Numbered from the stretch's first letter, positions 4,267 through 25,305 are shown. The stretch: 64,000 nucleotides of DNA from an uncultured Nitrososphaerota archaeon (GCA_963799845.1 CAWCYI010000006.1:544001-608000); one strand, 5' to 3'. The notes: a model not told the origin generated them from the letters alone. A program made the numbers and translations.

Positions 4267-4719
4267 TTGAAACAGCGTTTTCGATCAAATAATCAAAGTC
4301 GAATCGAAAGCTTCAGCCATCGATCTTCGAGACTTCCAAGCTCCGGAATATTGATTGTTGAAGAAAATCCGATTTTCTTGAAATGGTACTATGAGTGCCT
4401 ATCCCGTCTAGGTCTTCGGATCTTCGCGACCGAAAATTATCACGAAGCTGCCAATTTTTTCATCGCTTTCCGGCCGGAAATAGTCGTACTTGGGACCTGT
4501 CCGAGCGAGACTCGTCGGTTGAATTTTGCCAGCGAGATAATTCAGTTGGAGCCAGCGTGCAAACTGGTTCTCCTTTCTCCAAGAGCCGAAGATTCATGGA
4601 GAACGGAAAGAATCGGGTTCGACCTAATCCTCTCGACGAGAATTTCTCAAGAAAAATTCGTTGACGGTGTGAGAGCACTTACACACACGAAAAATTTCGT
4701 CGAGATCGTTGCTCGATAG
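4267..4719 (+). CDS. Receiver (REC)-like domain protein, degenerate pseudo-receiver
   Basis: ILIVEEN...RPEIVVLG...CKLVLLS follows CheY topology, but the phospho-Asp position is Gly. Confidence 0.6.
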   Translation: MKQRFRSNNQSRIESFSHRSSRLPSSGILIVEENPIFLKWYYECLSRLGLRIFATENYHEAANFFIAFRPEIVVLGTCPSETRRLNFASEIIQLEPACKLVLLSPRAEDSWRTERIGFDLILSTRISQEKFVDGVRALTHTKNFVEIVAR

Positions 4720-4866: not shown

Positions 4867-6103
4867 ATGGCCAGAGGAGATATTGTAGTGTTGGGGTCTG
4901 GGTTGATGGGGTCGTCCATTGCCATTGATCTCCTCGAAAGCAGCGCGGTCTCCAAAGTAGCTGTTGTGGATTCTAGCGGTGACCGATTGCGAGCTCTGGA
5001 GATGAGAGCGTCCAAGCTGTCGGGTCTGGACCAGACGACCGGTAGAAACCTGAAGCTCGGGGAGAAACTTCAGACAATTGAGCTGGACATCGTGAAGAAG
5101 AGGGAGGAGCTTCAGAGCCTTCTCTCAAAGTTCGAGTTGGGCGTCGGGGCTCTCCCCCACGGGATTGCGGAGGAAGCTGTGAAGACAGCGCTTGAATCTG
5201 GAATTAGTTTCGTAGATCTCATCTATTCCTGGCGACACGACAAATCATCTTCCGTGGACGCCAAAGCAAAACAGAAGGGTGTGACAATCGTCCCTGCGTG
5301 CGGCCTCGCTCCGGGTCTGACCAGCATTCTTGCAAAGTACGCGGCAGATCAGATGGAGGAGGTTGATTCCGTCAAGATCAAGGTGGGTGGAATTCCAGAG
5401 GTACCGAAACAGCCTCTCAATTACAAAGTCGTGTTTTCGATCGAGAGTGTACTTGAAGAGTATGTCAGAGACGCCCTAATCGTGAGGGATGGGAAAAAGA
5501 TAACTGTTCCGGCCCTTTCGGAAGTCGAGGAACTGACTTTCAACGAGTTTCCTGATCAGAAATTTGAAGCATTCATCACTGACGGCCTCTCGACCCTACC
5601 GGAGACGTTGAGGCGAGTAAAGACGATGGAGGAAAAGACGATTCGCTGGAAGGGACACGCAGAGCAGATTCAGACTTTTGATGGACCTCGGATTATTCTC
5701 GGAGAGGCCGGTAAATTTGAAGACCACCGGCAATAGGGTTTCTCCCCGGGCTTTGCTCTCGACGCTTCTCGACAAGAAACTCGCAATGCACCAGGGCGAC
5801 AAGGACATGACTCTGCTCCGGGTGGATGTTCAGGGCAGGAAGAAAAAGGGCGACAAATCGACCCGAATACACCGGTATGGAATGATCGACAAGTTCGATG
5901 TCACAACTCAAAGTACCTCCATGGCTAGAACTACCGCCCACCCCTGTTCGACAGTCGCTCTTATGCTCCTAGAAGGAAAGATTACCGAACGTGGCTTTAT
6001 CCCTCCCGAACTGGCGATCAAAGACGACAGGTTTGACGAATTCATCTCTAGGTTGGAGAGAAAGGGCCTCAACATCAAGGAACAGGAGTTCCTCGCTGAC
6101 TGA
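4867..6103 (+). CDS. Saccharopine dehydrogenase / lysine 6-dehydrogenase family (frameshift near 5678)
   Basis: Motifs VLGSGLMG, CGLAPG, EKTIRWKGH and SMARTT. Removing one T from acttttg joins ORFs 4852..5736 and 5678..6103. Confidence 0.85.
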
Positions 6104-10589: not shown

Positions 10590-11066
10590 TTACGCAACCG
10601 GCATTAGTACTCTGTCTATTGGGTAAATTACACCATTGCTGGCTTCGATGTTAGACTTTGTTACTTTTGCATCGTTTACAAACATGCTTTTCTGGATAGT
10701 TCCTTGCGTCTTGAGCGTGACTGAAGATCCTTGCATAGTCTGTACGCTTGGGGTCCTCTTGTCGCCTGTCAAATCGTGGAATTCATTCTCAGTGATCTTG
10801 TGGTCGATTATGTGGTAGGTGACGACGTTCCTCAATTTTGAGGGGTCCTTCATCCATCCGTCCACTGTTCCAGTCGGAAGACTTCTGAATGCATCATCTG
10901 TTGGAGCGAAGACTGTAAATGGTCCCTGACTGTTTAGTGTGTCTGCGAGTGCTGAAACCTCGATCGCCTGAACCAGTGTCTTAAAATCTTCATTTGATTT
11001 TGCTTGGTTTAGGATAGATCGCGACATCTGTTGCTCATTCATTGTGGTTGCTGTTGTGCTTGTCAT
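10590..11066 (-). CDS. Fasciclin (FAS1) domain protein 1
   Basis: Motifs GPFTVFAPTDDAF, YHII and ASNGVIYPIDRVL. Start is placed at the ATG at 11066, downstream of the TATA element. Confidence 0.92.
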   Translation of the reverse strand: MTSTTATTMNEQQMSRSILNQAKSNEDFKTLVQAIEVSALADTLNSQGPFTVFAPTDDAFRSLPTGTVDGWMKDPSKLRNVVTYHIIDHKITENEFHDLTGDKRTPSVQTMQGSSVTLKTQGTIQKSMFVNDAKVTKSNIEASNGVIYPIDRVLMPVA

Positions 11067-11081
11067 TCGAATTTCACAGTA

Positions 11082-11107
11082 TGTAATAGGCATTACGTAC
11101 TATATAC
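11082..11107 (-). promoter_or_regulatory. Promoter block GTATATAGTACGTAATGCCTATTACA
   Basis: Identical 26-bp copy at 24699..24724 (+); 17/20 match at 15549..15568 (+). Confidence 0.75.
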
Positions 11108-11340
11108 GTCTATGTAATCGATGTATCAAAAGAAGTGCAAAGGAACCAGTGGCTTACCTAATTCGGAAAAATGAACTCCTGAATTAAGGTCTGTCAAGTT
11201 CCAATTTTGGGCTTTCTTCGAACTCAAGTTAGGAAAAGACATTGAACAAGGCGGGATCGATCCAGAGATTACTTCTGTTCGTGGATTACTCCCTCAAATT
11301 TATCAATAATCGGCACAGCAAAACTTTCTAGGCAGCTAGC

Positions 11341-12267
11341 ATGAATTTCACAACGCACGTTATGTTCGGAGTACTGTTGGCGGCCGTATTCTTTGGCAAG
11401 CCTGAGATAATCCTCCTAGTAGCGATTGGTTCGGCGATTCCAGACTTGGACAGAGAATACGGTTTTCTAAGCAAGGAAACCTTTCGCAACGCAGAGGTCC
11501 ATCGAGCTCTATTCCATAACTTCTTGTTTCTCGGATTGCTCTGTCTGATCAATCCATTCCTCGCTCTTGGCGCTTTTCTGCACACATTTCTTGATGCTCT
11601 GACGACGGCCAGAGATAGAGGCGTCGAATGGCTTTTTCCGTTTTCGAGGTTTGTCAAAAGAGCTGCATATGATAACGATGGGAATCGCTTGGATCTCGAT
11701 CCCAATGAGAAAATATACTTCCTTCAAAATGAGATACATATCTTGACAAAGAAGACCACAAAGGACTTGAAACCAAGTGGGCCTTTATTGCCGTGGCGCA
11801 GAACTTACGGTCCGGCATTGTCCGGACGGCTGCTTGATCTGGGTATCTTTGTGGGTTCTCTCGGACTTACGCTTTTGCTTCTTCTCTTTTCTGTTCTTGG
11901 TTTTCACCAGTTCATAGATTTGGCAATCCTTCCTTCTGGACCAGCCTTTTACCTTCCACTCTTGCTCGGCGCCGCCGGGATCATAGTGAACTTTGTCGGG
12001 GGAGAGATTGACAGAAAGAAGCTTGCTAAAAACTTCAAACCTGATCATCTTTACAAGTTCTTTTTTTACCTTTCAACCGGAGACATGATACTCGCAGTAG
12101 CCCTCGGGGCAATAATGAATCCCGAAATCGTGATCTCAACGATGAGAATGATCCCATATATTGCAGCTGGTGTTGCCCTTGTCTTTCTCGTCTCTTTCGT
12201 CATATTGAAAATTTATTCCGCAAAGCCTCTGCCACTGGACGAGACGAAGGAACCGACAATAATTTGA
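11341..12267 (+). CDS. Membrane-bound metal-dependent hydrolase (YdjM/DUF457-like)
   Basis: Motifs TH, IPDLD, HRALFH and HTFLD..T..GVEWLFPF; multiple TM segments. Confidence 0.85.
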   Translation: MNFTTHVMFGVLLAAVFFGKPEIILLVAIGSAIPDLDREYGFLSKETFRNAEVHRALFHNFLFLGLLCLINPFLALGAFLHTFLDALTTARDRGVEWLFPFSRFVKRAAYDNDGNRLDLDPNEKIYFLQNEIHILTKKTTKDLKPSGPLLPWRRTYGPALSGRLLDLGIFVGSLGLTLLLLLFSVLGFHQFIDLAILPSGPAFYLPLLLGAAGIIVNFVGGEIDRKKLAKNFKPDHLYKFFFYLSTGDMILAVALGAIMNPEIVISTMRMIPYIAAGVALVFLVSFVILKIYSAKPLPLDETKEPTII

Positions 12268-12556
12268 TGTAATAAGCAAATTGAACGTCAACAAGAAGCC
12301 TCGTCCCAGATAGTGTCAAAACCAAAACTGAAAGCACATTGTATTCAAACACGGTGATACCCGGTTCACTTTAGACATGAATGGTCAAAATTGCCAGCTA
12401 GAATGAACATCATAGTTTTATGAAGAATTAGCTGGAAGTGGGGTAATTCTTTTTGAATATGCGGATCGGATGGCTGGAGCCAATGTTGAGAACGTCGACC
12501 TTCTGTCTCGCTGCCGTTGACAGGAGAGCAAGACCAAGGATAAGCGGGGCCTCCCA

Positions 12557-12934
12557 ATGTTTCTAGAAGTCGTTAAACTGGTAGTGAATACCATCCTTAA
12601 TGGTGGAGTAAAAGACTCTAATGTTTCAGACCTATCCCTAGAAGTCAAAGAAAAAATGGGTACATATACCCTCGGCATTGGCTCAACGATAGTCCTAGAA
12701 TCCAAAAAGGTGCTAACGCCAAAAGAAAAAAGAAGAAAAAACCTGATCATATCGTTAATAATATCATTGATTTTCATGATTGGGCTCTCTACCATTGGTG
12801 CTTGGCTCCCGGACGCTCAGGCTGGTCTAGGGAGAACATTGATTTTACTGAGTGAAATACCAGCGTTTGCGTACAGTCTTATAAGCACGAGATTCTTGAT
12901 GAAAAAAGCATCGCGCCGTAAAGCTACCAACTGA
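12557..12934 (+). CDS. Hypothetical membrane protein A1 (beta-hairpin module + 2 TM)
   Basis: Clear paralog of 14863..15216 (LSLE.KE, NLII, LPDA, GRTL..LSE.P, ISTR). Confidence 0.75.
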   Translation: MFLEVVKLVVNTILNGGVKDSNVSDLSLEVKEKMGTYTLGIGSTIVLESKKVLTPKEKRRKNLIISLIISLIFMIGLSTIGAWLPDAQAGLGRTLILLSEIPAFAYSLISTRFLMKKASRRKATN

Positions 12935-13044
12935 CGCTATCCAAACTTCACCTCAAAGAAAATCCTTTGCAGTAAGCGTAGAGAGATTGGACTGATGCGA
13001 GGATCGATATCGGGCACGGAAATTGTTCCCTTGATTCGATCGGT

Positions 13045-13527
13045 CTATTTGCCCGTTGCCGGAAAAGATGCAAAGTAATTTGAAGAGCTTTTCCGTCCGA
13101 TTGTCTCTATCACTTCGGTCCAGACCACGTCTCTCACGCCTCTCATGGCCTTCACATCTTCAAGCAGATTGAGCAAAACGCCGTTATCCTTTACGAAGAC
13201 TTCGACACGCAAATCGATTGTGTGTTCTCCGATTGTTCTTGCCGCGTACACTACCTCGTCACGCTTCAAAAGCTCCTTTCCGAGCTCAATTGTAGCGCCC
13301 CCTGTGGTATATATGAGAAGATCCACTCTCCTATATCCGAACTTCATCGGATCAAGCGCGTAAGTTTTTATGAGATAGTCAGACTCAAGTCTTTTCCGCG
13401 CTCTCTGAACAGTGCTCAAGGGGACTCCGAGTTCCAGAGAGATTTCATGCGTTGGCATTTTTCCTTCAGAGCCAAGCAGGAGCCGTAGAATCTTGCCATC
13501 TGTTTCTGAGAATTGCGAAATCATCAT
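13045..13527 (-). CDS. Lrp/AsnC family transcriptional regulator 1
   Basis: HTH EISLELGVPLSTVQRARKRLE plus RAM domain; paralog of the ORFs at 16446 and 23784. Confidence 0.9.
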   Translation of the reverse strand: MMISQFSETDGKILRLLLGSEGKMPTHEISLELGVPLSTVQRARKRLESDYLIKTYALDPMKFGYRRVDLLIYTTGGATIELGKELLKRDEVVYAARTIGEHTIDLRVEVFVKDNGVLLNLLEDVKAMRGVRDVVWTEVIETIGRKSSSNYFASFPATGK

Positions 13528-14048
13528 GAATTCTTACCTCTTTCAAACATCTAATGCCAACGGCTCAAAATTGTCATTGAAAGTGCGTTGCATCTATTGC
13601 ACTGCACAGTAAATTGAATTCCAGCGCCCATCTCCTTGAGTTCCTTAACGTTCCACTCGTGTGAGAGATAGTGATCAGCCAAGGCTTTAGGATTCTGTTG
13701 CACTTCCATCTGGACCTCTGAAAGCTTTGGAATCGAACATTGCGTTATTTTTCCGGAATTGTGATACTCTGGCGTTATCAATTTTTAGACTATCTTGATA
13801 GCAGCACGGCTTGAATGAAAGCTAGGAGTTCAATAATCGTCCGAAAAAAGAGATAATCCGCATAAATTGAATCCTAGATGAATAGAAATAGGATTAAGTC
13901 TCGGTCTATTTGGGCAATTTGTTCATTTCAATGATTCGTTTTGGCAATAGACTAATCTTCCTCTCTCGAACGGAGTTTTCCCCTGCTCCTGGTAGGGACT
14001 TACTAAACTTGCCAGAACCTAAGATAAGAAATGGATGCCATTCATATG

Positions 14049-14354
14049 TTACTGGTTTGCTTGAACTTGTGAAGAAGTTTCTAGAGTTCCAACAAGCGTC
14101 ATCAAGTCCTCTTTGCTAGTCTTTAACGCGACTTTGTCTCCTATTCCCTGCACGTGCGTCACATCAATTGGAATATGCGTACTGCGGAAGACTTTCCTCA
14201 TCTCGAACTCTTTAGCCACGTCTCCATCAAGCTGGACATCCAAAGATCCAATCTTCCAAGTCTTTTCATCGAACATTACGTTCTTTACTGTCCCTATCAC
14301 CCAGCCATTTAGTCCAATCACTTCTTTGTCCATCAAGTCAAGTATGTTCATCAT
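14049..14354 (-). CDS. PRC-barrel domain protein 2
   Basis: DLMDKEVIGLNG..IGTVKNVMFDEKTWKI..L..IP...VQGIGD.V pattern. Confidence 0.88.
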   Translation of the reverse strand: MMNILDLMDKEVIGLNGWVIGTVKNVMFDEKTWKIGSLDVQLDGDVAKEFEMRKVFRSTHIPIDVTHVQGIGDKVALKTSKEDLMTLVGTLETSSQVQANQ

Positions 14355-14486
14355 TTACCAAGCTCAGCCCTCAGTTGATCCTCGCTATCGGATAAGGCTT
14401 ACTCTCTTCCAATTTGTTCAGGACAAGTCTAGAACTGCTAACAAGCTAAAACGGATCTCCGGATGTCTTCTTGTCGGAGTGATCTG

Positions 14487-14771
14487 TCAAGAGACTTCCG
14501 AGGCTGCGAGCAGACCCATTAATTCTTCCTTGCTAACCTTCAGCGTAACCTTGTCTCCGATTCCTTGCACAATATTCACGTCTAATGGAATACGATAATT
14601 TCGAAAGACCTTCTTCATTTCAAATTCCCTTGCCACATTTTCATCAAGCTGGACATCAAGTGATCCAACTTCCCATGCTTTTTCATCAAACATTACATTC
14701 TTGATGGTCCCGATCAACGAACCATTCAATTCAACAATTTCTTTGCCCAACAAATCCATCATGTCCATCAT
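14487..14771 (-). CDS. PRC-barrel domain protein 1
   Basis: Tandem paralog of 14049..14354; both are preceded by AAGCCTTATC. Confidence 0.88.
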   Translation of the reverse strand: MMDMMDLLGKEIVELNGSLIGTIKNVMFDEKAWEVGSLDVQLDENVAREFEMKKVFRNYRIPLDVNIVQGIGDKVTLKVSKEELMGLLAASEVS

Positions 14772-14862
14772 TTAGGAACTCACTTTGCGTTGAAACTTGC
14801 CGTCCGATAAGGCTTTGGAATGGGAGTCATTCGAGTGATGCGACGTCATCCAAATTAAGGGA

Positions 14863-15216
14863 TCAAGAAATGTTTCTAATTATGTACCGCGTGCTGATGA
14901 TGTTGACTAAAATCGCTGGGAATTCGCTCAAATAGACAAGCGTTCGACCAAAAACTGCATCTGGAAGTAAGGTTCCAACCACGGCCAGCGCAACCCAAAT
15001 GGACAGAGAGATGAAAAATACTATAATCAAATTCCTACTTCCCGTATATCTACGTACTAGTTCCCCTTTTGTTGCAACAAGCACTGTCGAGTTAATATCG
15101 AGAACGTACTTTCCATCGGTCTCCTTGAGTTCGAGAGACAAATTTGTAATCTCAGAGTCTGTAATTATGAGATGAAGCCAGAAGTTCAAAACCATTTTTG
15201 AGAGCCTTGCGAACAA
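14863..15216 (-). CDS. Hypothetical membrane protein A2 (beta-hairpin module + 2 TM)
   Basis: Paralog of 12557..12934. Confidence 0.75.
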   Translation of the reverse strand: MFARLSKMVLNFWLHLIITDSEITNLSLELKETDGKYVLDINSTVLVATKGELVRRYTGSRNLIIVFFISLSIWVALAVVGTLLPDAVFGRTLVYLSEFPAILVNIISTRYIIRNIS

Positions 15217-15586
15217 ATGACCATTACCTAGATGTTCATTGCATTTTCCTTATGTCACAGATTACTAAAACTAGGCTGGTGGACGTTTTTCAAATCCTCG
15301 AGGGCCTCATGATTGACGGTCGATTCTGGCAATGCTGAAATCATTCTCCCAACTAATTCTTGATTCACGGTAGAACTACTTAATGCCATCGGCGAATACG
15401 TGCGCATGTAGCAGTTTTGAGTGGCAAGACACTGCTTAATGTGAACGATCTAGTCAAATATTATACCCCCAATGAGCCGTGATCTCACAAATCATTAGAG
15501 AGTCTTCGCAATTGAGCATTCTTGGGCTTCTCGAATGATACTACGCCAATATAGTACCTAGTGCCCATAAGAGGTGGTCTTATTTT

Positions 15587-15838
15587 ATGACAACAACAAC
15601 GCAAAAAGCAACGGAAACTATGGAGAACGTCGGCAAAAGTGTTCACCATCAGACGGAGAAACTAAACGATTCTTTGGACACTGTGAGAAAACAATTAGTT
15701 ACTTATGGGGACGAGATTCAAGAGTACCTAGGGAAAGTCGACGCTAAAGTCGATGCGTGGAAGTTTTCCATCGAGAAGCAAAATGAAGGACTTATCGTGG
15801 ACATCGCGTTCCGTGCGACGATACATCCGAAAAGGTAG
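15587..15838 (+). CDS. Hypothetical small protein B1 (amphipathic helix + beta-hairpin)
   Basis: SD GAGGTGG upstream; paralog of 20429..20710 (Q.YL.KVDAK.D..KF..EK..EGL.VD..FRAT.HPK). Confidence 0.8.
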   Translation: MTTTTQKATETMENVGKSVHHQTEKLNDSLDTVRKQLVTYGDEIQEYLGKVDAKVDAWKFSIEKQNEGLIVDIAFRATIHPKR

Positions 15839-15888
15839 ACTGAATCATTTGCTGGGATTAACGGATAAACAAGAGAAGATAGAGTAGC

Positions 15889-16011
15889 ATGATATTCTCA
15901 TTAAGAAAGAAAAATAACAAGAGCGGGATCGGAACTCTAGGCGTCATAGTAGTTGTGGTGCTTGTAATAATCGTTCTCGCATGGTTCGGGTTCGGCGGAC
16001 TGCATCTCTAA
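15889..16011 (+). CDS. 40-aa pilin-like/class III signal-like membrane micropeptide 1 (not in ORF track)
   Basis: MIFSLRKKNNKSGIGTLGVIVVVVLVIIVLAWFGFGGLHL. Same length and pattern as the paralog at 21417..21539; followed by a T-tract and a C(UUCG)G hairpin. Confidence 0.8.
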   Translation: MIFSLRKKNNKSGIGTLGVIVVVVLVIIVLAWFGFGGLHL

Positions 16012-16445
16012 ACCTTAGAGACGCTCTCTTTTTTTGCACCACCTTCGGTGGGCCTTGTGCGCGCTGACGCAAGGCGTATGTGATCCTAACGAGATTTAGA
16101 AGCTACCTCTAGTGACAACTTTTTTTCTTGGAGAATAATAATCAGAAAGACGTCAATCTAAAATCCGTTCAACTTTGACCTAACAAGTAGCGGAAAGCAC
16201 TGAATCTCAAATTTTCTCGAATAAACCTGAGAATCCTCCAATTTCATATTCTTGTCTACCAGGCGAAATCTGCGAATTTACTTCCAACGGGAGAATATCG
16301 AGATTTCATAATCTTCCGATGTCTGGTGGTTAGCTGGTTCTCATTAGTCCGAATTCCTTTCGCTCGGATCACGCTCTCAAATTTGATAATCGTATCTTGG
16401 CTTTAAGAGAGGCCTTGGTCCATAGTTCTCGTTGAGTGATTAAGC

Positions 16446-17114
16446 ATGATATTCAACGGGCTTGAACAAATGACTAAGCATTTGCAGCTTTCCGAAGAAG
16501 ACAGGAAAATGTTAAAGCTTCTAGTTGATTCCGGGGGAAAAATATCATCGTTCGAAATATCTCAACAATTTGGAGTCTCATTGAGCACTGTTCAGCGGAG
16601 GCGGAAGAAACTCGAAGATACTTATTTCATAAGAACTTACTCGCTGGACCCCGTGAAGCTCGGATATCGAAGGATCGAGCTTCTGATATACACAGTAGGT
16701 GGCACTACGATCGATATCGGAATGGAACTTCTGAAGCGTGAAGAGGTGACTTCCGTATTCAGAACTTTGGGAGAGCATGCGATTGACCTACGCGTTGAAG
16801 TCTTCGTGAAGGATAATGCAGCTTTGCTCGATCTTCTTGACCAGGTAAGAGCTATGAAAGGAGTCAAGGATGTAATCTGGACTGAAATTTTCGAGCCCAT
16901 GGATATGACGAGTGCTACAAATCGTGTCTCCAGGGGGAATGAGGTAGAACCACGGCCTGCCAACCTAGCTAAGAGCGAATTGAAAACGTATGAGAGATAT
17001 GCGTCTATCGCCCTTCCTGAAATCCCTGCCCACTCGAACTTTGCACTAGATCTTCCTGAACGATCCACTGAGGAATTGAAAATTCTGGAAAGAATTAATG
17101 TAATCGGGCAATGA
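16446..17114 (+). CDS. Lrp/AsnC family transcriptional regulator 2 with C-terminal extension
   Basis: Paralog of 13045 and 23784 (LSTVQRRRKKLE, GEHAIDLRVEVFVKDN) with an extra tail of about 55 aa. Confidence 0.88.
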   Translation: MIFNGLEQMTKHLQLSEEDRKMLKLLVDSGGKISSFEISQQFGVSLSTVQRRRKKLEDTYFIRTYSLDPVKLGYRRIELLIYTVGGTTIDIGMELLKREEVTSVFRTLGEHAIDLRVEVFVKDNAALLDLLDQVRAMKGVKDVIWTEIFEPMDMTSATNRVSRGNEVEPRPANLAKSELKTYERYASIALPEIPAHSNFALDLPERSTEELKILERINVIGQ

Positions 17115-17352
17115 ATTTTTTTGAATAGATATCTGAGAAAATAAAAGTTGGCCGGAGGGCATCAAAAACAACGGACGGGAAGAGGATTTCTCATTTCATG
17201 GATTTTCAGAAGAAAGTGATCTGGGAACTAGCGCTGGAAATGCCTCGGTTCGACTCAGGTCAGTCAAGTTGATCGCAAAAGGAATCTTACTGTCACTTTC
17301 TAGTCATATCAAACGATGGTCGGTGATTGTTTCGTCAGTTTTTAGCCATTAT

Positions 17353-17372
17353 TTGAACAGTTCATTATTATA
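17353..17372 (+). promoter_or_regulatory. TTGAAC-N7-TATA promoter motif (fasciclin 2)
   Basis: TTGAAC agttcat TATTATA; same spacing at 20375, 21581-21600 (-) and 23548-23567 (-). Confidence 0.6.
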
Positions 17373-17413
17373 GATCCTACGCGGTCTGATCAACACAGGT
17401 AATGTGAAAATTT

Positions 17414-18025
17414 ATGGCAACAATAAATCAGCAGATGTCAGATATACTAGATACAGCAAAGTCAATTGGTGACTTCAAAATGCTTATGCGAGTAGTAGAG
17501 GGAGCAGGTCTTGCAGACACTCTAAAGAGTCAGGGCCCTTTCACAGTGTTCGCTCCTACAGACGAAGCATTCAGGAATCTTCCAACTGGAGAATTGGATG
17601 AATGGTTGAGAGATCCTTCAAAGTTGAGGAGCATAGTCACCTATCACATCGTTGATCGCAAGATCGATGAGAATGAATTTCACAGGTTGACTGCAGATAG
17701 GAGAACCCCAAGTGTAATGACGATGCAAGGATCATCAGTCGTGATCAAGACCCATGGGACCCTATCAAAAACAATGTTCGTAAACGATGCGAAAGTAATC
17801 AAGTCTGACATTCTAACCACTAATGGTGTAATTTACATCATTGACAGAGTACTCGAGCCTGCGCCTGCAGCTCAAGCGCCTATGACCGCAGCTCCACAAA
17901 CAAAGAGTGAAGCCACGGCTCCGACTCCAGAAACCGCCACTCCGGCTCCTCAAACCACAACTCGAAACGAGTCGACGACAACTACTACGACTACAACAAC
18001 GAATCCTCCAAATCCGACCTCCTGA
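17414..18025 (+). CDS. Fasciclin (FAS1) domain protein 2 with Thr/Pro-rich tail
   Basis: Motifs GPFTVFAPTDEAF and TTNGVIYIIDRVL; paralog of 10590..11066. Confidence 0.92.
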   Translation: MATINQQMSDILDTAKSIGDFKMLMRVVEGAGLADTLKSQGPFTVFAPTDEAFRNLPTGELDEWLRDPSKLRSIVTYHIVDRKIDENEFHRLTADRRTPSVMTMQGSSVVIKTHGTLSKTMFVNDAKVIKSDILTTNGVIYIIDRVLEPAPAAQAPMTAAPQTKSEATAPTPETATPAPQTTTRNESTTTTTTTTTNPPNPTS

Positions 18026-18041
18026 TTTAACTCATGAGCGC

Positions 18042-18083
18042 GGCCTCAAAGGAGTGTATTTGCACTCCTTTGGACTAGAGGCC
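18042..18083. terminator. Strong stem-loop between convergent fasciclin 2 and csbD-like genes
   Basis: CAAAGGAGTG (18047-56) pairs with CACTCCTTTG (18063-72); outer GGCCT/AGGCC pair. Confidence 0.55.
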
Positions 18084-18395
18084 CAACATCACTTCACTCC
18101 TGAGATACAACTTCTGTCTGCTGGGACCCAGAATTGACGCCTGAAAAACCAAGTTCACTTTTGCAATCGTGGAAATATCAGAAAAAAGAGGGGAGGTACT
18201 TCAAACAAATACCTCCGATGGAAATCAAGTACTTTAGCCTTAGATTCTCTTTCTAGCCTTCCCGACCTCTTTCTGCACCCTACCCCTGACTTGCTCCATC
18301 TTTCCTTTTACTTGTTGGCTCTTGTTATTCGTAATTTTTCCAACCGCTTCGCGGGCCTTTCCCTTAGTATTCTCTCTTTCGCCTTCTCTGATTTG

Positions 18396-19433
18396 TCTCT
18401 TTTCCGACAATTATTTCGCAAGCTGGTAAACAGGAGTAGACTGGGAGAGTTTTGGAAGAGCGTAACAAAGCGTTACGAGAAACATGTGCCCGCGAAGTCT
18501 TGATAGCGACAAGATCAGTTACCTCTTCAGAGCTAGAGAAAGGGGCGAGACCTGCGCAAACATTGCTCTCCAGCTCGGGGTGTCAAAGAGGAGGGTTGAG
18601 CAGATACTTGCCCAGCATAGGAAAGGTGGGGGTGTGCCTCTCCTCCTCAAGAAACCAGGAAGGAAAAGCATTCCAATTACCGACGAGGAAACTTCACTCG
18701 TCATTGATGCTTATCAGAGATATAGGGCAAACGCCCTCTACCTTGAACGAAAGATCGAGTGCGATAGCAAGATTCACATCAACCACAACAGGATACACAG
18801 GGTGCTCCTGATGAACTCCTTTGCGTCAAACTCTAGGAAGAAGTGGATAAGGAGGAAGTGGGTCAGATACGAGAGGGAGCACTCGAATTCATTATGGCAT
18901 ACGGACTGGCACGAGGTAAAGGATCCGAGGTGGAAGGGCAAGTGGCTCACCTGCTATGAGGATGATGCTTCTCGTCTCATTACCGGATTTGGGGTCCATG
19001 AAACGCTGACCTCGGAGTACTCTGTTTCCTGTCTTGAGAGCGCCATGAAGGAACACGGCAAACCTGCATCGATCCTATCCGACCACGGAACCACATTTTA
19101 CACGATGGAATCTGAGAGGAGGGAGAAGGGGATGACAGAATTCGAGAGGTGTCTCTTGAAGCACAAGATAAGATTCATCCTCGGAAGAGTCAACCACCCC
19201 CAGACGAACGGCAAGATCGAGAAGTTCTTCGACATATTCGAGAGTAAGATCAAGTGGTTCTCCTCGATAGATGAGTTCATGAAGTGGTACAATGAAGTGA
19301 GGCCTCATGGAGCCCTTGACCTCAAGACGCCAACCCAGGCTTACTACGAGAAGATGCCGCAGTTAGATGCTCTTGAATATCCTTTGTCTATGGAGGTCTC
19401 CTGACAGATGCGAAATGATTTCTGGAAAAAACA
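18396..19433 (+). mobile_element. IS481-family insertion sequence, copy 1 (1038 bp, 14-bp TSD CCTTCTCTGATTTG)
   Basis: Imperfect IRs TCTCTTTTCCGACAATTATTTCGCA / TGCGAAATGATTTCTGGAAAAAACA; TSD at 18382-18395 and 19434-19447. Confidence 0.93.
18484..19404 (+). CDS. IS481-family DDE transposase
   Basis: Motifs WHTD, DDASR, SDHG, HPQTNGKIE and YNEVRPH. Confidence 0.93.
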   Translation: MCPRSLDSDKISYLFRARERGETCANIALQLGVSKRRVEQILAQHRKGGGVPLLLKKPGRKSIPITDEETSLVIDAYQRYRANALYLERKIECDSKIHINHNRIHRVLLMNSFASNSRKKWIRRKWVRYEREHSNSLWHTDWHEVKDPRWKGKWLTCYEDDASRLITGFGVHETLTSEYSVSCLESAMKEHGKPASILSDHGTTFYTMESERREKGMTEFERCLLKHKIRFILGRVNHPQTNGKIEKFFDIFESKIKWFSSIDEFMKWYNEVRPHGALDLKTPTQAYYEKMPQLDALEYPLSMEVS

Positions 19434-19655
19434 CCTTCTCTGATTTGTTTAGACATTATGGAATCATTGAGAGTTCAGCGCAAGTGAGTATTAATGGGAT
19501 TTCGCCAGCATTGTGATTCAAATGCGCTTTCTTAGTCATTCTGGAGACGCTTAATGACCTTTGCTTCAAGCTTTAGGGCATTTGCTGGGCGATTCGTTAT
19601 CATAGCACGAGAGCAGTTTACACACCAAGGAAATGAAAGAGAAAGGTAAATTGAC

Positions 19656-20072
19656 ATGAGCACAGCCCCAGAAGATCTAAAGAACATACTTGGACCAAAC
19701 GAGCAGGTACAGATCTATATCAAGCAGAAATTTTATCATCCAAAGATCAATATCGACTCGGTCGTCATAACAAACGAAAGAATAATTCTGAGACATCCCC
19801 ATGCCCTCACACTGAAAAAAGATTATACTGATTTCAATTATCAAGATATTTCAAACGTCGTGTTGAACAAGGGAATCATTAGATCAACTGTAAATTGCAC
19901 ACTTCGATTCGGCGGAGATGCGTTATCGCTAGCTTCCTTGCGCAATTCGGAGGCAGAGAAGGCCTATGGTTTAATCAGAGAGAATCTCGTCCGATACCAG
20001 TCGCCACTCACTGCACGATCAGAGGGAGTCCCTTCTCTCCAGGCCGTGCCAGGAACAACTCCCCGAACGTGA
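19656..20072 (+). CDS. Bacterial-type PH domain protein
   Basis: ILGPNEQV...VVITNERII...DFNYQDISNV pattern. Confidence 0.8.
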   Translation: MSTAPEDLKNILGPNEQVQIYIKQKFYHPKINIDSVVITNERIILRHPHALTLKKDYTDFNYQDISNVVLNKGIIRSTVNCTLRFGGDALSLASLRNSEAEKAYGLIRENLVRYQSPLTARSEGVPSLQAVPGTTPRT

Positions 20073-20428
20073 AGCAACGATAGGTTCCGAAATGAGCGGT
20101 AATCCGACGATTCGCGTCATGCAGCATTTCACTGCGATTTCATTAGCACATGATTTGACGGCGAAAGAGTTCGAGACGGTGTAGAAAGATGGTCCAGATT
20201 GTAAAAGAAAAAGCAGAAGGCAATTCGAAACTAAAACCAAAAAACTTCCTGAGTTAGCCTTTGAGAGCGGTGAGAAGGGGCACGAAAACGAGGGCGGACA
20301 TGAAATGCCTAGAGAAGGAAAGCCCTTTCGACAACAGGGCATATTGATTATCCTGTTCACAAAATCACTTCAATTTGAACTTCTGACCTTTATAGAAAGA
20401 AGTACTTCTACTAAATGTTGAGAAATTT

Positions 20429-20710
20429 ATGACAACCTTGGTTACAGACAATGAAGTAGAGCCGGAAAGAAGTTCCGGCGATTCGGCGGGTCAATCAGAG
20501 GACTCTGAACCTAAGGTCGGTCTGAAGCAGCACCTCTCAAACTACAGTAATCAGGTTCAAGATTACCTAGACAAGGTTGACGCGAAAATTGACGGATTCA
20601 AGTTCACGTTAGAGAAACACGGCGAAGGACTCACGGTAGATCTTTCATTCAGGGCAACATTACACCCAAAAAATGCAAAGACCGCTGAGAAAACTGAGAA
20701 AGAAGTCTGA
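20429..20710 (+). CDS. Hypothetical small protein B2 (amphipathic helix + beta-hairpin)
   Basis: Paralog of 15587..15838; preceded by TTGAAC-N7-CTTTATA. Confidence 0.8.
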   Translation: MTTLVTDNEVEPERSSGDSAGQSEDSEPKVGLKQHLSNYSNQVQDYLDKVDAKIDGFKFTLEKHGEGLTVDLSFRATLHPKNAKTAEKTEKEV

Positions 20711-20943
20711 GTCCGACTCTAGCACAACAAAGAAACTTGCCCGGCGCAGTCCGTTACTAAGCCACGTCCACTCAATCAAATAGGAGAATCTATTCACGTA
20801 CAAATTCCTGTTTCGAAAACATTGGACGTCAGTGAAAAATATTGGCCTTTTGAGTAGATCTCTCGATCTCGTTCAAGCATTCGAGAAAGAGACTACTTTC
20901 CTATCCGTCAAGTAATCTCGAACTCAGATGCGCCGTGAGTCTG

Positions 20944-21273
20944 TCAGACGATGAAGCCAATGATTATGCCTATTACAAGGCCGATACTAAGAGGTATGAT
21001 CCCAAGGAAGATGGCCACGTAGGTCGCCGCAACCGGTCCATAAGTGGTTATTAGATTTTTTACTCCTGATTCGAGGCTGGCGAGGCTGACAAAGCCGAAG
21101 TAAGACGCCACGAGTGCGACGACGATCAGTATTATCGCGATCATTAGTGCTTTCCTGATAAAGTACCCTATGATTATTCCAATGATTAGAGGGATTGCCA
21201 TCACAACAAGTGAAGGAATTCCCCCGCCAAAGGTTCCACCTATTAAGTGAAAAATGTCATTGATTAGTGTCAA
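20944..21273 (-). CDS. Small hydrophobic membrane protein, FUN14-like
   Basis: GIIIGYFIRKAL.IAII..., 3 hydrophobic segments and a C-terminal GLVIGIIIG; the family call is from recall. Confidence 0.7.
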   Translation of the reverse strand: MTLINDIFHLIGGTFGGGIPSLVVMAIPLIIGIIIGYFIRKALMIAIILIVVALVASYFGFVSLASLESGVKNLITTYGPVAATYVAIFLGIIPLSIGLVIGIIIGFIV

Positions 21274-21416
21274 AGCTATCTACTTCCACTCGATTCCCGT
21301 TGATTGCTAGTCTGCCTTCTCATCGTATAACGTTTTCTCGCGGGTCTAATCAGTGATTTCCCTAGTTGGGTTTTTGTTAATTGTTTCCTTACCATGTTAC
21401 ATTCACTCTTCAAGGA

Positions 21417-21539
21417 TCAAAGGTGCAGGCCAGCGAAGCCGAAGTACGCAAGAACGATGATTACAACGACGGCAATTATTATGACTTCGAGAGACCCCAT
21501 CCCAGACTTGCTATTATTTTTCTTCAATAAGAATCTCAT
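21417..21539 (-). CDS. 40-aa pilin-like/class III signal-like membrane micropeptide 2 (not in ORF track)
   Basis: MRFLLKKNNSKSGMGSLEVIIIAVVVIIVLAYFGFAGLHL; Gly-1 and Glu+5 arrangement. Confidence 0.8.
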   Translation of the reverse strand: MRFLLKKNNSKSGMGSLEVIIIAVVVIIVLAYFGFAGLHL

Positions 21540-22057
21540 TTGAGATCAGAATCTAACATTGTAACGGAGAGCTCAGTTGCTATGAAAACAAGCCGTTCAA
21601 TTTTTGCTCAATTAGCGAAGAAATCTGAGGTCGAATCTTTCAAAGATGACCAAAACGATACATGGCCTTGTCTCAAGTGGATGAAGCAGTCTACAATTAT
21701 CGATCCAATTTGAAATTGCACGAATCTGTTGTTTCGAAATGATAGAATTGCAGGCCAGATTTTAGAATTGAATCCTATCCAGATTTCAGCCTAGGAAAAT
21801 TGCCGGAAAACAAATCTTAACATGAATCTCACAAGTTTAGGGCACTTTTGCTTTTCCGGAACTTTGAAGCACGAGTACCCAAGTTTGTTGTAGTATCAAG
21901 AAGGAATATGATCCATCCGAACTGCTCAAATGGTTTTTTCAGTCATTCAAAAGCGATGGACGAGTATTTTTCATCAAATGTCTGGTTTCAACTGAAATGT
22001 TACTTTTCATACTAGCTCGCTTTACTCACAAGGTAACTATTCAAGAGGAGATCATAA

Positions 22058-22285
22058 ATGAAATCATCACGAAAAGACGCAATAACTCAAATCTTCGAGA
22101 TGGAAATGCCAACTGAAGCGCGGACCAGTAAATTTGTCGAAACTGGATCTCTCGGATTACTTCTTTCAACTGATACTGTGTACCGCACATGCTTCAATTG
22201 TCAGGGTCATCCTAGCTATCCAGAGATACCTCCTTCGACGTTACACCGTGGTCAAGAATGTCTGATATGTGGAATCAGACAATAA
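22058..22285 (+). CDS. Small putative zinc-binding protein
   Basis: SD GAGGAG upstream; CFNC and CLIC pairs. Confidence 0.5.
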   Translation: MKSSRKDAITQIFEMEMPTEARTSKFVETGSLGLLLSTDTVYRTCFNCQGHPSYPEIPPSTLHRGQECLICGIRQ

Positions 22286-22659
22286 ATCTGACTCTCATTT
22301 TCGAACTAATGTGAACGAATAGGCAGTATGTTACGTTTCTAAATACGAAATCGTTATCGCTACAGTGGATGATGGTTTGTTGAATGGCCAACACACCCTG
22401 TTTTTTCATGCTATCGAACATCCTCCATGATCTCCTGACTGAGCATTTCGTCTACACGATAACTACCCGTAGACATATCAACTAGAATTACATGGTTGCG
22501 TCGGGGAAATTCTTTCCCAAATACCCGAATCAGTATTTCGATGGCATTCTTTTTTTCTGTATCCATTTTCACCTACCTTCCAACTATTTCGTCAACCCGT
22601 TTCAAATGCGCGGAATTTACGCGGACAATTCTCAACAGACTCATCGTCGTCTCCATAAT

Positions 22660-23497
22660 TTACGGAATAATTGGCGAAACGGCTTGTTCCTCTTGTTCTT
22701 GCTTGTCTTTCGGGGGAGCAATTAACGGCGCTACATTTGGTTGGAGCGATCCGGCACCTGCGGTTGGCATATTGGTAGGGACCAACATCAAAGTTCCGCG
22801 GCCCTGCAGGCCTCAGCTCGTATAAGATATTCATCCATCGGAGCTCCATAGCTCTTGGATTCGCAGAATACAAGTTTGCAGCGTCGACCATCTTTTGCGC
22901 TGCCTGAAATTCCGCCTCAGCTAAAGTAATCCTCGCTCTTCGCTCTCTTTCTGCTTGAGCCTGTCTTGACATCGCTTCTTGAAGGGCCGCAGGAGTGGTA
23001 ATGTCCCTGATTTCGACAGCAGTAACCTTAACCCCCCAGTTTTCCGTTTTCAAGTCAATAATCTCTCGAGCTGATGCGCCTATCTTTTCCCTTTCATAGA
23101 GCAGATTATTGAAGCTAACCCCACCGATTGTCTCTCGAAGTGTGGTTTGGGCTGCAAGTTGAGTTGCCATACTGTAATTTTCCACATTCAGCGTTGCCTT
23201 CTCGACATCAACAGGCTGGTAGTACATCACGGCATCTACGTTTACCGGAACGTTGTCACGGGTAAATGTTTGCTCGGTCTTGAAAGTCAACACCTGCAAC
23301 CGGGTTGAAATGATGTAGGGAACCTTGCTAATGAATGGTGGAACGTAGATTATCCCAGGGCCTTTCAGACCCCTATAGCGGCCCAGAGTTAATAGCGGTG
23401 CTCTTTCCCACTCACGGAGAATCTTGATGCCTGAAAGAAAAATGCCCAAAACCAAGATGGCGATGACCCCCACTAATGCAAGACTGATAATGCTCAA
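22660..23497 (-). CDS. SPFH/stomatin (slipin) family protein (frameshift near 22814)
   Basis: Motifs TRDNVPVNVDAV, WGVKVTAVEIRD and AMSRQAQAERERRA. Removing one base restores the C-terminus GLQGRGTLMLVP...SPIIP. Confidence 0.9.
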
Positions 23498-23690
23498 GAT
23501 GGATCTATTGCTATCGTTACTAGCCTGGCGTTTTAGGTCAATATCAATATGAAAGCGAATCGTTCAATTTGTTAGGCAATATTGGAGAAAGCCTTCACAT
23601 GGCATGACGCATTGACCAGAATGACCTCATTTGCACAATAATTTGCCTTATTTGCTCACAAATTACTCGTTGAAGCATGATTGAGGCAAA

Positions 23691-23711
23691 GTTCCAATGT
23701 CACTTTGGAAC
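23691..23711. promoter_or_regulatory. Perfect inverted repeat GTTCCAA-N7-TTGGAAC between divergent SPFH and Lrp genes
   Basis: Seen directly; candidate operator. Confidence 0.5.
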
Positions 23712-23783
23712 ACTATGAGAGACATGACAGTAATAAGATAGAATTAGAAAAGCACATATCTAATAAAACCCTTTCTGCAATCC

Positions 23784-24266
23784 ATGCCACTTTCTCAGCT
23801 CTCGGACCTTGATAGGCAAATTTTGAGACTCCTTGTAGAATCCGAGGGAAATATTCCGACTCACGAGATCTCGCAAGAGCTACGCATTCCACTGAGTACT
23901 GTACAAAGAAGACGAAAGAGACTTGAAGAAAACTATCTGATTCGGTATTATTCGCTTAATCTCCAAATGTTTGGATGGAGACGGATCGATCTCCTCATCG
24001 CCACAGAAGGCGGCGCTACCATTACTGTCGGAAAGGAACTATTAAAGCGAGATGAGGTAATTTTCGCGGCGAGAACAATTGGAGAGCATACAATAGACCT
24101 AAGAGTCGAGACACTCGTAAAAGACAACGGGGAATTACTCGATCTCTTAGAAGAAGTGAAGGCGATGAATGGAGTAAAAGACGTTGTTTGGACGGAGATA
24201 GTGGAGACGATAGGCCGAAAGAATCCGCCAAATGATTTTTCACGCTATTGGAAGAATCCGGAATAG
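23784..24266 (+). CDS. Lrp/AsnC family transcriptional regulator 3
   Basis: Close paralog of 13045..13527. Confidence 0.9.
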   Translation: MPLSQLSDLDRQILRLLVESEGNIPTHEISQELRIPLSTVQRRRKRLEENYLIRYYSLNLQMFGWRRIDLLIATEGGATITVGKELLKRDEVIFAARTIGEHTIDLRVETLVKDNGELLDLLEEVKAMNGVKDVVWTEIVETIGRKNPPNDFSRYWKNPE

Positions 24267-24324
24267 TAGCTTCCTAAGTTTCGAATCGATCAAAATTCAG
24301 CTTAAAGAGCAGGGTTTATTCTTC

Positions 24325-24543
24325 GTGTCAACAATTACCCAGAAGAAAATTTCCAACTGTCACTTCTTTCGAATTTCCTACTCAAATGGAAAGGAAAGAT
24401 GGGTTGCCTTCGACCCGCTCAAGGGACCGAAGTTGGCTGTTTCAGAGATGAAAAGGCTTGTACAAAAATCAGATTCCGAAGCAGGAACAAAACAACCAGG
24501 CGTTGTTTGGTATATGGGGAAATTAGCTTTGTGGAAGGTGTAA
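24325..24543 (+). CDS. Hypothetical small protein
   Basis: GTG-started 72-aa part of ORF 24232..24543; no recognisable family. Confidence 0.35.
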   Translation: MSTITQKKISNCHFFRISYSNGKERWVAFDPLKGPKLAVSEMKRLVQKSDSEAGTKQPGVVWYMGKLALWKV

Positions 24544-24698
24544 TTGCTCTCAAACAGTCTTGGTCATTGTAAAGGCGAATCCGAATTAAACCTAAGACTC
24601 CTCTAGATTTACTGATTCCAACACAGATAGTACTCAGCTAAAATTAGGTCAGAAAATGATCTTAAACTGGTAACAGGCAGTGCTAGTTCAACATAGGT

Positions 24699-24724
24699 GT
24701 ATATAGTACGTAATGCCTATTACA
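24699..24724 (+). promoter_or_regulatory. Duplicate of the fasciclin-1 promoter block
   Basis: 26-bp identity with 11082..11107 (reverse complement), continuing into GTGAAAATT..ATGACAA. Confidence 0.75.
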
Positions 24725-24867
24725 ACTAGTGAAAATTGCATGACAAAACAGCAACGGAATAAGCCTTCAGCAAGGCAGAATAATTTTGATAACTTTCCTA
24801 GTCGCAAACCGATTACCTATCGTGTAAAGCAGGTAGTTTGAATGATTTAGATGGATTGTGAAAGTGC

Positions 24868-25305
24868 ATGAATCTATTTCATAGGTCTAGACAGGAGACT
24901 GCAAAAGTACAGACAAGTAATGCTGTCCAGATGGGCATCTCGCCTTTGAAGAATCTCGTCATAAGCGATCCAAAGATGTTCGCTGCATTGCAGAATTTTC
25001 TGATCGTTGATCCGGAAAGACAAATACCGCTGCTCGACAGTGTCAGCACACTCCTAGCGAAGGGGGACGCAGCCAAAGCACAAGGAAACAGAATGACTGC
25101 TCGCGCAGATTACGAGATTGCCGCAAAGATTGAGATCTACAGACAAAACAAGGACAGCGCAAGGACATTTCTGGTATTAGCTGAAGGAGTCTCTGACAAA
25201 GGACAGCCTCACCACGAATATCAAGAAACAATGCTAGCTAATATGGACAAAGTCATGCGGATTTCGAATGAGTTCCAAGATTTTGTGCCCCATCAATTAA
25301 AGTGA
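24868..25305 (+). CDS. Hypothetical helical protein
   Basis: 145-aa ORF with a TPR-like Ala-rich helix pair. Confidence 0.65.
   Translation: MNLFHRSRQETAKVQTSNAVQMGISPLKNLVISDPKMFAALQNFLIVDPERQIPLLDSVSTLLAKGDAAKAQGNRMTARADYEIAAKIEIYRQNKDSARTFLVLAEGVSDKGQPHHEYQETMLANMDKVMRISNEFQDFVPHQLK

Follow-up and report, generated by a model that had tools for sequence, protein, structure and literature searches.

Two 40-amino-acid (aa) genes in the genome of an uncultured Nitrososphaerota archaeon are real, conserved protein-coding genes that are paralogous to each other and evolve under purifying selection. They lie in a stretch of 64,000 nucleotides (nt) (GCA_963799845.1, CAWCYI010000006.1:544001-608000), which, at its full length, is hereinafter called the window. 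The encoded proteins belong to a new and genuine microprotein family of archaeal membranes that is represented in a few soil and peat lineages and recurs beside one small set of genes. On balance, they appear to be single-pass membrane microproteins with an N-in orientation that act together with their conserved neighbors and are not filament subunits. An original prediction, made from the window sequence, had described the two open reading frames (ORFs) as micro-pilins; the evidence from motifs, domain models and gene linkage does not support this identity.

Both ORFs (hereinafter, copy 1 and copy 2) were found on reading the window exactly where they had been predicted (Table 1), and the reported layout, that is, a basic leader, Lys-Ser-Gly, a hydrophobic helix and an aromatic-FGFxGLHL motif followed by the stop codon, is readily recognizable in each. 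In copy 1, a basic N-terminal segment of about 12 residues precedes a Val/Ile-rich helix of about 25 residues and the conserved C-terminal motif that extends up to the stop. In each copy, four of the first 11-12 residues are basic; a stretch of about 25 uncharged residues follows, up to His39, and there are no basic residues after the helix. Glycines are grouped at both helix ends. With a mass of about 4.3 kDa, these proteins combine the features of small single-pass membrane proteins, namely, a length of at most about 50 aa, one membrane-spanning helix and charge asymmetry, and this pattern is family-wide. A Glu five residues past the Gly is present in copy 2 only, which is a paralog from a minority clade characterized by this Glu after the conserved Gly. 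The description of the two genes as unannotated holds for the ORF track behind the original prediction only, as copy 1 is already recorded in a protein collection, from a contig of 1,751,265 bases, equal in length to the contig that contains the window. The named family members are labeled 'hypothetical protein' by both the Joint Genome Institute (JGI) and NCBI.

The two copies share 26 of 40 residues (65% identity; 34 of 40 positives; BLASTP E=4e-12) and are 72% identical at the nucleotide level. The proportion of synonymous differences (pS) is 0.58 and the synonymous distance (dS) is 1.09, that is, near saturation, at a nonsynonymous distance (dN) of 0.22 (dN/dS=0.20). Comparison with the ortholog of copy 2 in a related genome (G003) yields dN/dS of 0.14 when copy 1 is used and 0.17 with copy 2, all these values being rough because they are based on only about 29 synonymous sites. 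The dN/dS range of 0.14-0.20 agrees with the earlier suggestion that the protein pattern was retained by purifying selection while the DNA diverged. The G003 ortholog of copy 2 is 80% identical and has the same neighbors. The genome (4.6 Mb in 9 contigs, 86.7% complete) holds two copies only; six further matches at E<=10 all have E>=0.04 and lie within frames of 158-796 aa. Chance ORFs or conserved non-coding DNA would be compatible with the very short length of both ORFs and with the RNA-library cover discussed below, in which near-identical cover from the same strain is limited to 15601-15854 and the ORF itself is spanned by a contig of a relative. This explanation is already refuted for practical purposes by the low dN/dS with synonymous sites near saturation and by the preservation of frame, start and stop in 87 distinct sequences from three taxonomic families.

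The pattern recognized in the two copies is indeed that of a family: hidden Markov model (HMM) and whole-genome searches recovered many homologs, in all 87 distinct sequences that are mostly 33-44 aa long. A five-sequence profile retrieved 37 proteins of 32-61 aa at E<=0.01, two of them from Nitrososphaerales archaea, among 990 candidates screened from a collection of 5.8 billion proteins. A library-wide HMM search without a length filter yielded 36 representatives at E<=0.001, ten of these at E<=1e-10. In 33 of the 36, the match reaches the C-terminus of the protein or stops a few residues short of it; the longer representatives are N-terminal over-calls and three read-through variants, one of 170 aa, and, apart from this outlier, no longer relative with a domain after the helix was found among them. 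Pfam and NCBIfam contain no model for the family. A search for related loci returned one among genome contigs and none among metagenome contigs, and look-ups of copy 2 and of the 83-aa partner described below in the Protein Atlas gave no usable result. No description of the family was found in the literature, in which no search on the motif itself was made.

Four subtypes share a common architecture that consists of Met, a short, partly conserved tail, two to four basic residues, G/A-x-G, a Val/Ile-rich helix and an aromatic-Phe-Gly motif. In the subtype of the window, the C-terminus has the form L-A-[YFW]-F-G-x-x-G-L-H-L, followed by the stop. In an alignment of 46 sequences, L30 and G34 are invariant, and G15, L17, V26, F33, G37, L38, H39 and L40 are conserved in at least 90% of the members. 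The conservation peaks at the C-terminus, and in nearly all members the stop codon directly follows the C-terminal motif. The N-terminal tail is conserved as well, with Phe3 in 31 and Asn9 in 28 of 40 sequences.

The phyletic distribution of the family is narrow. At E<=1e-5, whole-genome search identified holders in 16 of the 401 genomes sampled from the order, all from two families: the genome that contains the window and 3 of 12 others of its own family, and 12 of 97 in the second family, with 11 of these in one genus; none of the 291 genomes from the other 18 families of the order has the microprotein at this threshold. Among 400 other genomes sampled from the phylum, there is a single holder (G421, 98% complete). 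Most holders are incomplete metagenome bins, so that absences are soft. The number of copies per genome is one to three. The unpublished genome G001 is included in the order-level counts of holders and in the peptidase counts given below, and G259 and G270 in the latter; no claim depends solely on any of these three genomes, except for the truncated G001 remnant. This remnant (locus L014, approximately 1500-1560; publication requires the depositors' permission) corresponds to the 3' half of a microprotein gene and nothing more, with the stop replaced and the frame continuing, and is probably a decayed copy. In G421 (L070, 435-7235), a 39-aa member is located between a 506-aa ORF and a 129-aa ORF that, by eye, resemble an amino-acid permease and an MscL-like channel, respectively; polyprenyl synthetase-like and geranylgeranyl reductase-like ORFs, also recognized by eye, lie a few kilobases (kb) away.

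The gene neighborhoods were compared across 21 places, namely, 20 loci from 15 relatives and the window, within a radius of 6 kb; many of these loci are cut by contig ends, so that the counts of neighbors are lower bounds. A homolog of the bPH_3 domain protein is encoded 246-1345 nt from the microprotein gene at 7 of the 21 places. This association spans three divergent subtypes and two taxonomic families, the widest range of subtypes for any neighbor. Regulators of the Lrp/AsnC family are found within the radius at 7 places, a radical S-adenosylmethionine (SAM) enzyme 108-2477 nt away at 6, and a YdjM-like membrane hydrolase at 4. Within the window, paralogs of the 83-aa partner protein are kept near both copies. 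The features in question are collected in Table 1.

Table 1. The two microprotein genes, their neighbors in the window, and type IV filament genes elsewhere in the same genome (C4 and C6 are contigs of this genome; the window begins at C6:544001)
Feature	Position	Strand	Remarks	Sequence
83-aa partner gene (P0066)	15587..15838	+	directly upstream of copy 1, 50-nt spacer	
Microprotein copy 1, 40 aa	15889..16011	+	ATG start, stop	MIFSLRKKNNKSGIGTLGVIVVVVLVIIVLAWFGFGGLHL
7-T run	16029..16035	+	18 nt past copy 1 stop	
Lrp/AsnC-type regulator	16446..17114	+	downstream of copy 1; paralogs at 13045-13527 (-) and 23784-24266 (+)	
bPH_3 protein	19656..20072	+	PF14470, E=9.4e-13	
93-aa paralog of the 83-aa partner	20429..20710	+	near copy 2, convergent; 42% identity to P0066	
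109-aa multi-pass membrane protein	20944..21273	-	143 nt downstream of copy 2, same strand	
Microprotein copy 2, 40 aa	21417..21539	-	ATG start, stop	MRFLLKKNNSKSGMGSLEVIIIAVVVIIVLAYFGFAGLHL
A24 prepilin peptidase	C6:26416-26736		own genome	
ATPase/platform loci	C6 ~21-23 kb; C4 ~823-826 kb; C4 ~868-871 kb		own genome	

Copy 1 probably forms one operon with the gene for the 83-aa partner. In a relative from a DNA library, the spacer between the two genes, 50-52 nt in the window, is replaced by 8 nt. The partner family includes 19 members, 5 of which are on contigs equal in size to contigs with microprotein members. The structural model of the partner consists of a long helix and a beta-hairpin (predicted local distance difference test score, 72.9), and a Foldseek search with this model against PDB yielded no match at E<=0.001. 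A prediction of the complex between the partner and the microprotein gave an ipSAE of 0.00, a value obtained without controls that weighs neither for nor against binding. The T-run downstream of copy 1 is likely to be an archaeal oligo-T terminator.

Near copy 2, the 93-aa paralog shares a conserved C-terminal half with P0066. The gene for the 109-aa membrane protein may form an operon with copy 2; there is no T-run between the two, and the arrangement is identical in G003. This protein has 26 relatives, several of which are named 'Fun14 family' by JGI, and shows no match in Pfam. It shares a YFGF stretch with the microproteins and was considered as a relative of the family, which was rejected at a non-significant hhalign probability of 23%. 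The region upstream of copy 2 is 86% similar overall to that in G003, too alike to expose a promoter. A possible divergent small ORF of about 43 codons (21540-21713, +) begins on the opposite strand, at a distance of 42 nt upstream of copy 2; G003 retains the start and the first residues of this putative ORF, and the remainder diverges.

Weak evidence for the transcription of copy 1 and its partner comes from RNA-library run X6, a peat metatranscriptome available as contigs only, with the strand unknown. The contigs cover 15601-15854 (1 difference), 15638-15900 and 15884-16016 (9 differences), along with two neighboring genes. The last of the three, which comes from a relative, spans the entire copy 1 and extends for another 38 nt after the stop, where its own sequence becomes T-rich. 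There is no X6 cover on the insertion sequence (IS)-like element located between the two copies, although the three DNA runs reach their greatest depth there.

The presence of an adjoining radical SAM gene at 6 places could suggest that the microproteins are precursors of ribosomally synthesized and post-translationally modified peptides (RiPPs) matured by this enzyme of the relatives. The enzyme, however, is of the PTO1314/DUF3463 class and not a SPASM peptide maturase: it matches TIGR03961 (PTO1314) with 524.9 bits against a cut-off of 306 and contains the DUF3463 domain, as in HpnH, whereas the SPASM peptide-maturase families score far below their own cut-offs. There is no ortholog in the genome of the window, where the sole match, 31% identical over 172 residues, is located elsewhere on the contig. 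The peptides contain no Cys, and therefore a RiPP role is unlikely; furthermore, the whole peptide is a membrane helix. Taken together, a RiPP precursor seems very improbable. The PTO1314-family genes lie beside the microprotein gene at L051 (4349-5425), L056, L059 (2946-4109), L061, L065 (756-1928) and L069 (2378-3544), and in these relatives, they often also adjoin the YdjM-like hydrolase and the bPH protein. At L059 (genome G218), two different members of 33-34 aa are encoded in tandem, 340 nt apart (4614-4715 and 5056-5160), and the pair is flanked by the genes for the radical SAM enzyme and the bPH protein. The idea that this radical SAM protein is a glycerol dialkyl glycerol tetraether (GDGT) ring synthase was dropped because that synthase is a B12-binding radical SAM enzyme, as described in 10.1101/2025.10.20.683597.

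The explanation that appears best compatible with these observations, and that we consider reasonably probable, is that copies 1 and 2 are N-in single-pass microproteins that function with their conserved neighbors. By the positive-inside rule, the N-terminus would be cytoplasmic and the C-terminus would reside at the outer face of the membrane. The peptide would insert after translation, because a chain of 40 residues barely clears the ribosome tunnel, and would stay in the membrane as a helix. It could then act through the C-terminal aromatic/glycine motif, in the outer leaflet, and the short conserved cytoplasmic N-tail, as an accessory, anchoring or regulatory single-helix subunit of a partner. 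The candidate partners are the 83-aa helix-hairpin protein, the FUN14-like membrane protein encoded downstream of copy 2, and the bPH protein. Judging from the neighbors, the process served might be membrane or envelope homeostasis.

Several points weigh against this interpretation. We infer both the interaction with a partner and the function of the microproteins from the neighbors, and these vary by subtype: the 83-aa partner occurs only with the subtype of the window, and the bPH protein is present at only 7 of the 21 places. The second bPH gene of the genome has no peptide-like ORF beside it. As for expression, contigs reveal neither the strand nor the ends of transcripts, X6 may contain some DNA, and it has no cover on copy 2, although absence of cover proves nothing. 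Finally, the N-terminus, with its basic cluster followed by Gly or Ala and then by the hydrophobic domain, fits cleavage by a prepilin peptidase.

The latter fit is the basis of the principal alternative, which takes up the cleavage proposed in the original prediction. Under this scenario, the A24 peptidase removes the basic leader and leaves a head-less helix of 27 or 28 residues, a class III signal-peptide substrate. This helix would become part of a type IV filament machine, serve as its primer, cap or regulator, or just require a free N-terminus. The residues around the proposed site are partly favorable. Gly or Ala occupies the proposed -1 position in all 81 parsed members (Gly in 69, Ala in 12; Gly13 in both copies). 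Arg or Lys is present at -3 in 61 of the 81, most members have a basic residue at -3 or -2, and the hydrophobic domain begins immediately after the proposed site. According to PMC4371748, Gly, Ala or Ser at -1 is general among prepilins, a charged residue at -2 is critical for the recognition of archaeal prepilins by their peptidases, and an acidic residue at +5 is found in only some archaeal pilins.

The remaining positions are less compatible with cleavage. In the register of the original prediction, a charged residue is present at -2 in only 16 of 80 members and in neither copy. With the cut moved by one residue toward the N-terminus (Lys-Ser, then Gly), both copies and 43 of the 80 pass, and no register is conserved. 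The dipeptide rule itself has little specificity because, among 397 unrelated long ORFs of the same genome that carry a hydrophobic domain at the N-terminus and served as a control, 111 (28%) also pass it. Gly at -1 together with Glu at +5, previously considered a pilin signature, is indeed present in copy 2; however, Glu occupies +5 in just 8 of the 81 parsed members, and Gly is found there in 58. The four-residue core, which we take to be the one used by FlaFind-type rules, fits 4 of the 87 members compared with 6 of the 9 N-termini of pilin-like proteins from the same genome (the listed termini were read by eye). The Ser at -2 had been recognized as a deviation from the strict FlaFind [KR][GA] rule; nevertheless, it is not disqualifying in this organism because two of its own pilin-like proteins also have Ser at -2. 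When the nine pilin-like ORFs are aligned on their conserved mature N-terminus, position -2 is Lys or Arg in 6, Ser in 2 and Gln in 1, and both proteins with Ser at -2 have Arg at -3, as in the microproteins. These two (C4:793688-793843 and C4:829770-829859, both on the minus strand) have Arg-Ser-Gly/Ala before the mature N-terminus, and one of them is encoded inside a pilus locus. Going by these termini, the prepilin peptidase of this lineage may accept a basic residue at -3.

Conservation and domain models similarly speak against a pilin-type substrate. The conservation of the leader itself would be odd for a discarded piece, and the strongest constraint applies to the far C-terminal motif rather than to the proposed cleavage site. 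The Pilin_N model (PF07790) fits 16 places in the genome at E<=10, true pilin candidates included, but neither of the microprotein genes, and the 25 families listed for the 46 members at E<=1 do not include it. Weak matches to Flp1_like (PF16982) were detected in 20 of these 46 members, with the best E-value of 1.8e-4, and would be consistent with a pilin relationship. Nonetheless, the cut-off of this model is 33.5 bits, of which copy 2 reaches only 20.7 bits (E=2.8e-4 per protein) or, in the genome-wide search, 17.8 bits (E=0.012), and copy 1 shows no match; sub-cut-off matches (E<=10) to this model also occur in 10 of 14 control genomes, including that of Escherichia coli. The protein ends 27 residues past Gly13 and contains no extracellular domain; such a bare hydrophobic helix would offer a filament no soluble surface.

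The genome encodes one A24 peptidase and three ATPase/platform loci (Table 1), and the peptidase is present in 12 of the 16 holders in the order as well as in G421, the four holders without it being 61-76% complete. Nevertheless, this frequency shows no enrichment over that in all genomes of the two respective families (85 of 109), and more than 500 kb separate the pilus loci from the window, although, as stated in PMC4371748, pilin genes need not adjoin the assembly genes. Thus, the pilin identity of the microproteins is not supported, and the likeness to pilins is mostly a look-alike effect of an N-terminus with basic residues, Gly and a hydrophobic segment. Cleavage by the A24 peptidase would be unlikely, and slightly less likely still is the broader proposal that the family is a head-less class III substrate, with a helix of 27-28 residues that docks into or regulates the type IV platform or competes with pilins for the peptidase. 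If true, this substrate would be the smallest 'pilin' known and the first without an extracellular domain, and the substrate range of archaeal prepilin peptidases would extend to bare helices.

The small size and the lone hydrophobic helix also bring to mind membrane-damaging peptides, that is, type I-toxin-like, holin-like or archaeocin-like molecules that would oligomerize via glycine motifs and depolarize the membrane of the producer or of a competitor. The glycine clusters at either helix end, the narrow and patchy distribution, the presence of one to three copies per genome and the G218 tandem pair all would fit such a role, as does the resemblance to bacterial single-transmembrane (TM) toxins, such as DinQ (PMC3567139). 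However, neither an antisense RNA nor an immunity gene was identified, the RNA data being unstranded contigs; the charge is N-terminal to the helix, with no pointer to secretion; and the peptides have neither Cys nor a double-glycine leader. A role in structure or regulation agrees better with the conserved protein-coding neighbors and with the strong conservation at both ends of the peptide, so that a toxin appears to be a rather improbable interpretation.

Beyond the immediate neighbors of the two copies, the region 10590-25305 has the appearance of a membrane or envelope island with segmental duplications. It encodes the three Lrp/AsnC-type regulators (Table 1); two genes that, by eye, are fasciclin-domain-like (10590-11093, -, and 17414-18025, +); two similar membrane proteins of 117-125 aa (12557-12934, +, and 14863-15216, -); and a PRC-barrel protein and an SPFH/Band 7 protein. 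The IS-like element (18396-19434) contains a 306-aa transposase/integrase-like ORF (18484-19404, +) which, by eye, resembles a DDE (rve-type) integrase. The depth of this element in the DNA runs is 61x compared with about 5x in the flanks, and contigs break at both of its ends with two different continuations; therefore, multiple copies of it are present in the population.

The small membrane proteins of archaea are a poorly surveyed group, and the family described here is a conserved, lineage-specific case with a sharp C-terminal motif. It brings with it a probable two-gene operon with an equally uncharacterized 83-aa helix-hairpin protein and a recurrent tie to bacterial-type PH domain proteins, themselves of obscure function. 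The family is amenable to HMM searches and is missed by some gene callers and by ORF-length cut-offs; the 4.3-kDa microprotein is a target to seek in soil and peat metaproteomes.

Of the systems already described, the type IV pilins of archaea and further class III substrates (PF07790, PF16982) resemble the microproteins in the short basic N-terminus, the Gly or Ala and the hydrophobic helix that immediately follows, in the presence of an encoded A24 peptidase, and in the basic-Ser-small triplet common to two pilin-like proteins of this genome. In contrast, the pilins of this organism have a different shared mature N-terminus, whereas the microproteins lack a domain after the helix, a model match and linkage to assembly genes, and are constrained at the C-terminus. 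The bacterial Flp/Tad pilins, the smallest known pilins, also consist mostly of one hydrophobic helix, but the mature Flp pilins are about twice as long, and both their G|xxxxEY processing motif and the location of their genes in tad loci set them apart; the microproteins show none of these features. KCNE1 (ISK_Channel) shares with the family basic-Ser-Gly-x-Gly, a beta-branched helix and an FFGF-type motif, and surfactant protein C has a similar poly-Val helix; weak Pfam matches to these two were obtained for 7 and 2 of the 46 members, respectively. Homology with either was rejected in favor of a composition-driven chance resemblance: in the search of the family profile against all PDB sequences, KCNE1 was the only match, at E=0.16. 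The value of this resemblance is limited to an analogy for a single-helix accessory subunit. Among the small membrane proteins of bacteria that consist of one helix are AcrZ, KdpF and MgrB, and many proteins of this kind exert their effect on a larger membrane protein or complex to which they bind. The microproteins show no sequence relationship to them and are archaeal, restricted to a few Nitrososphaerales lineages and one other Thermoproteota family; nevertheless, like the 27-aa YohP (PMC7549839), they are no longer than 50 aa, consist essentially of one TM helix and have been overlooked by annotation.

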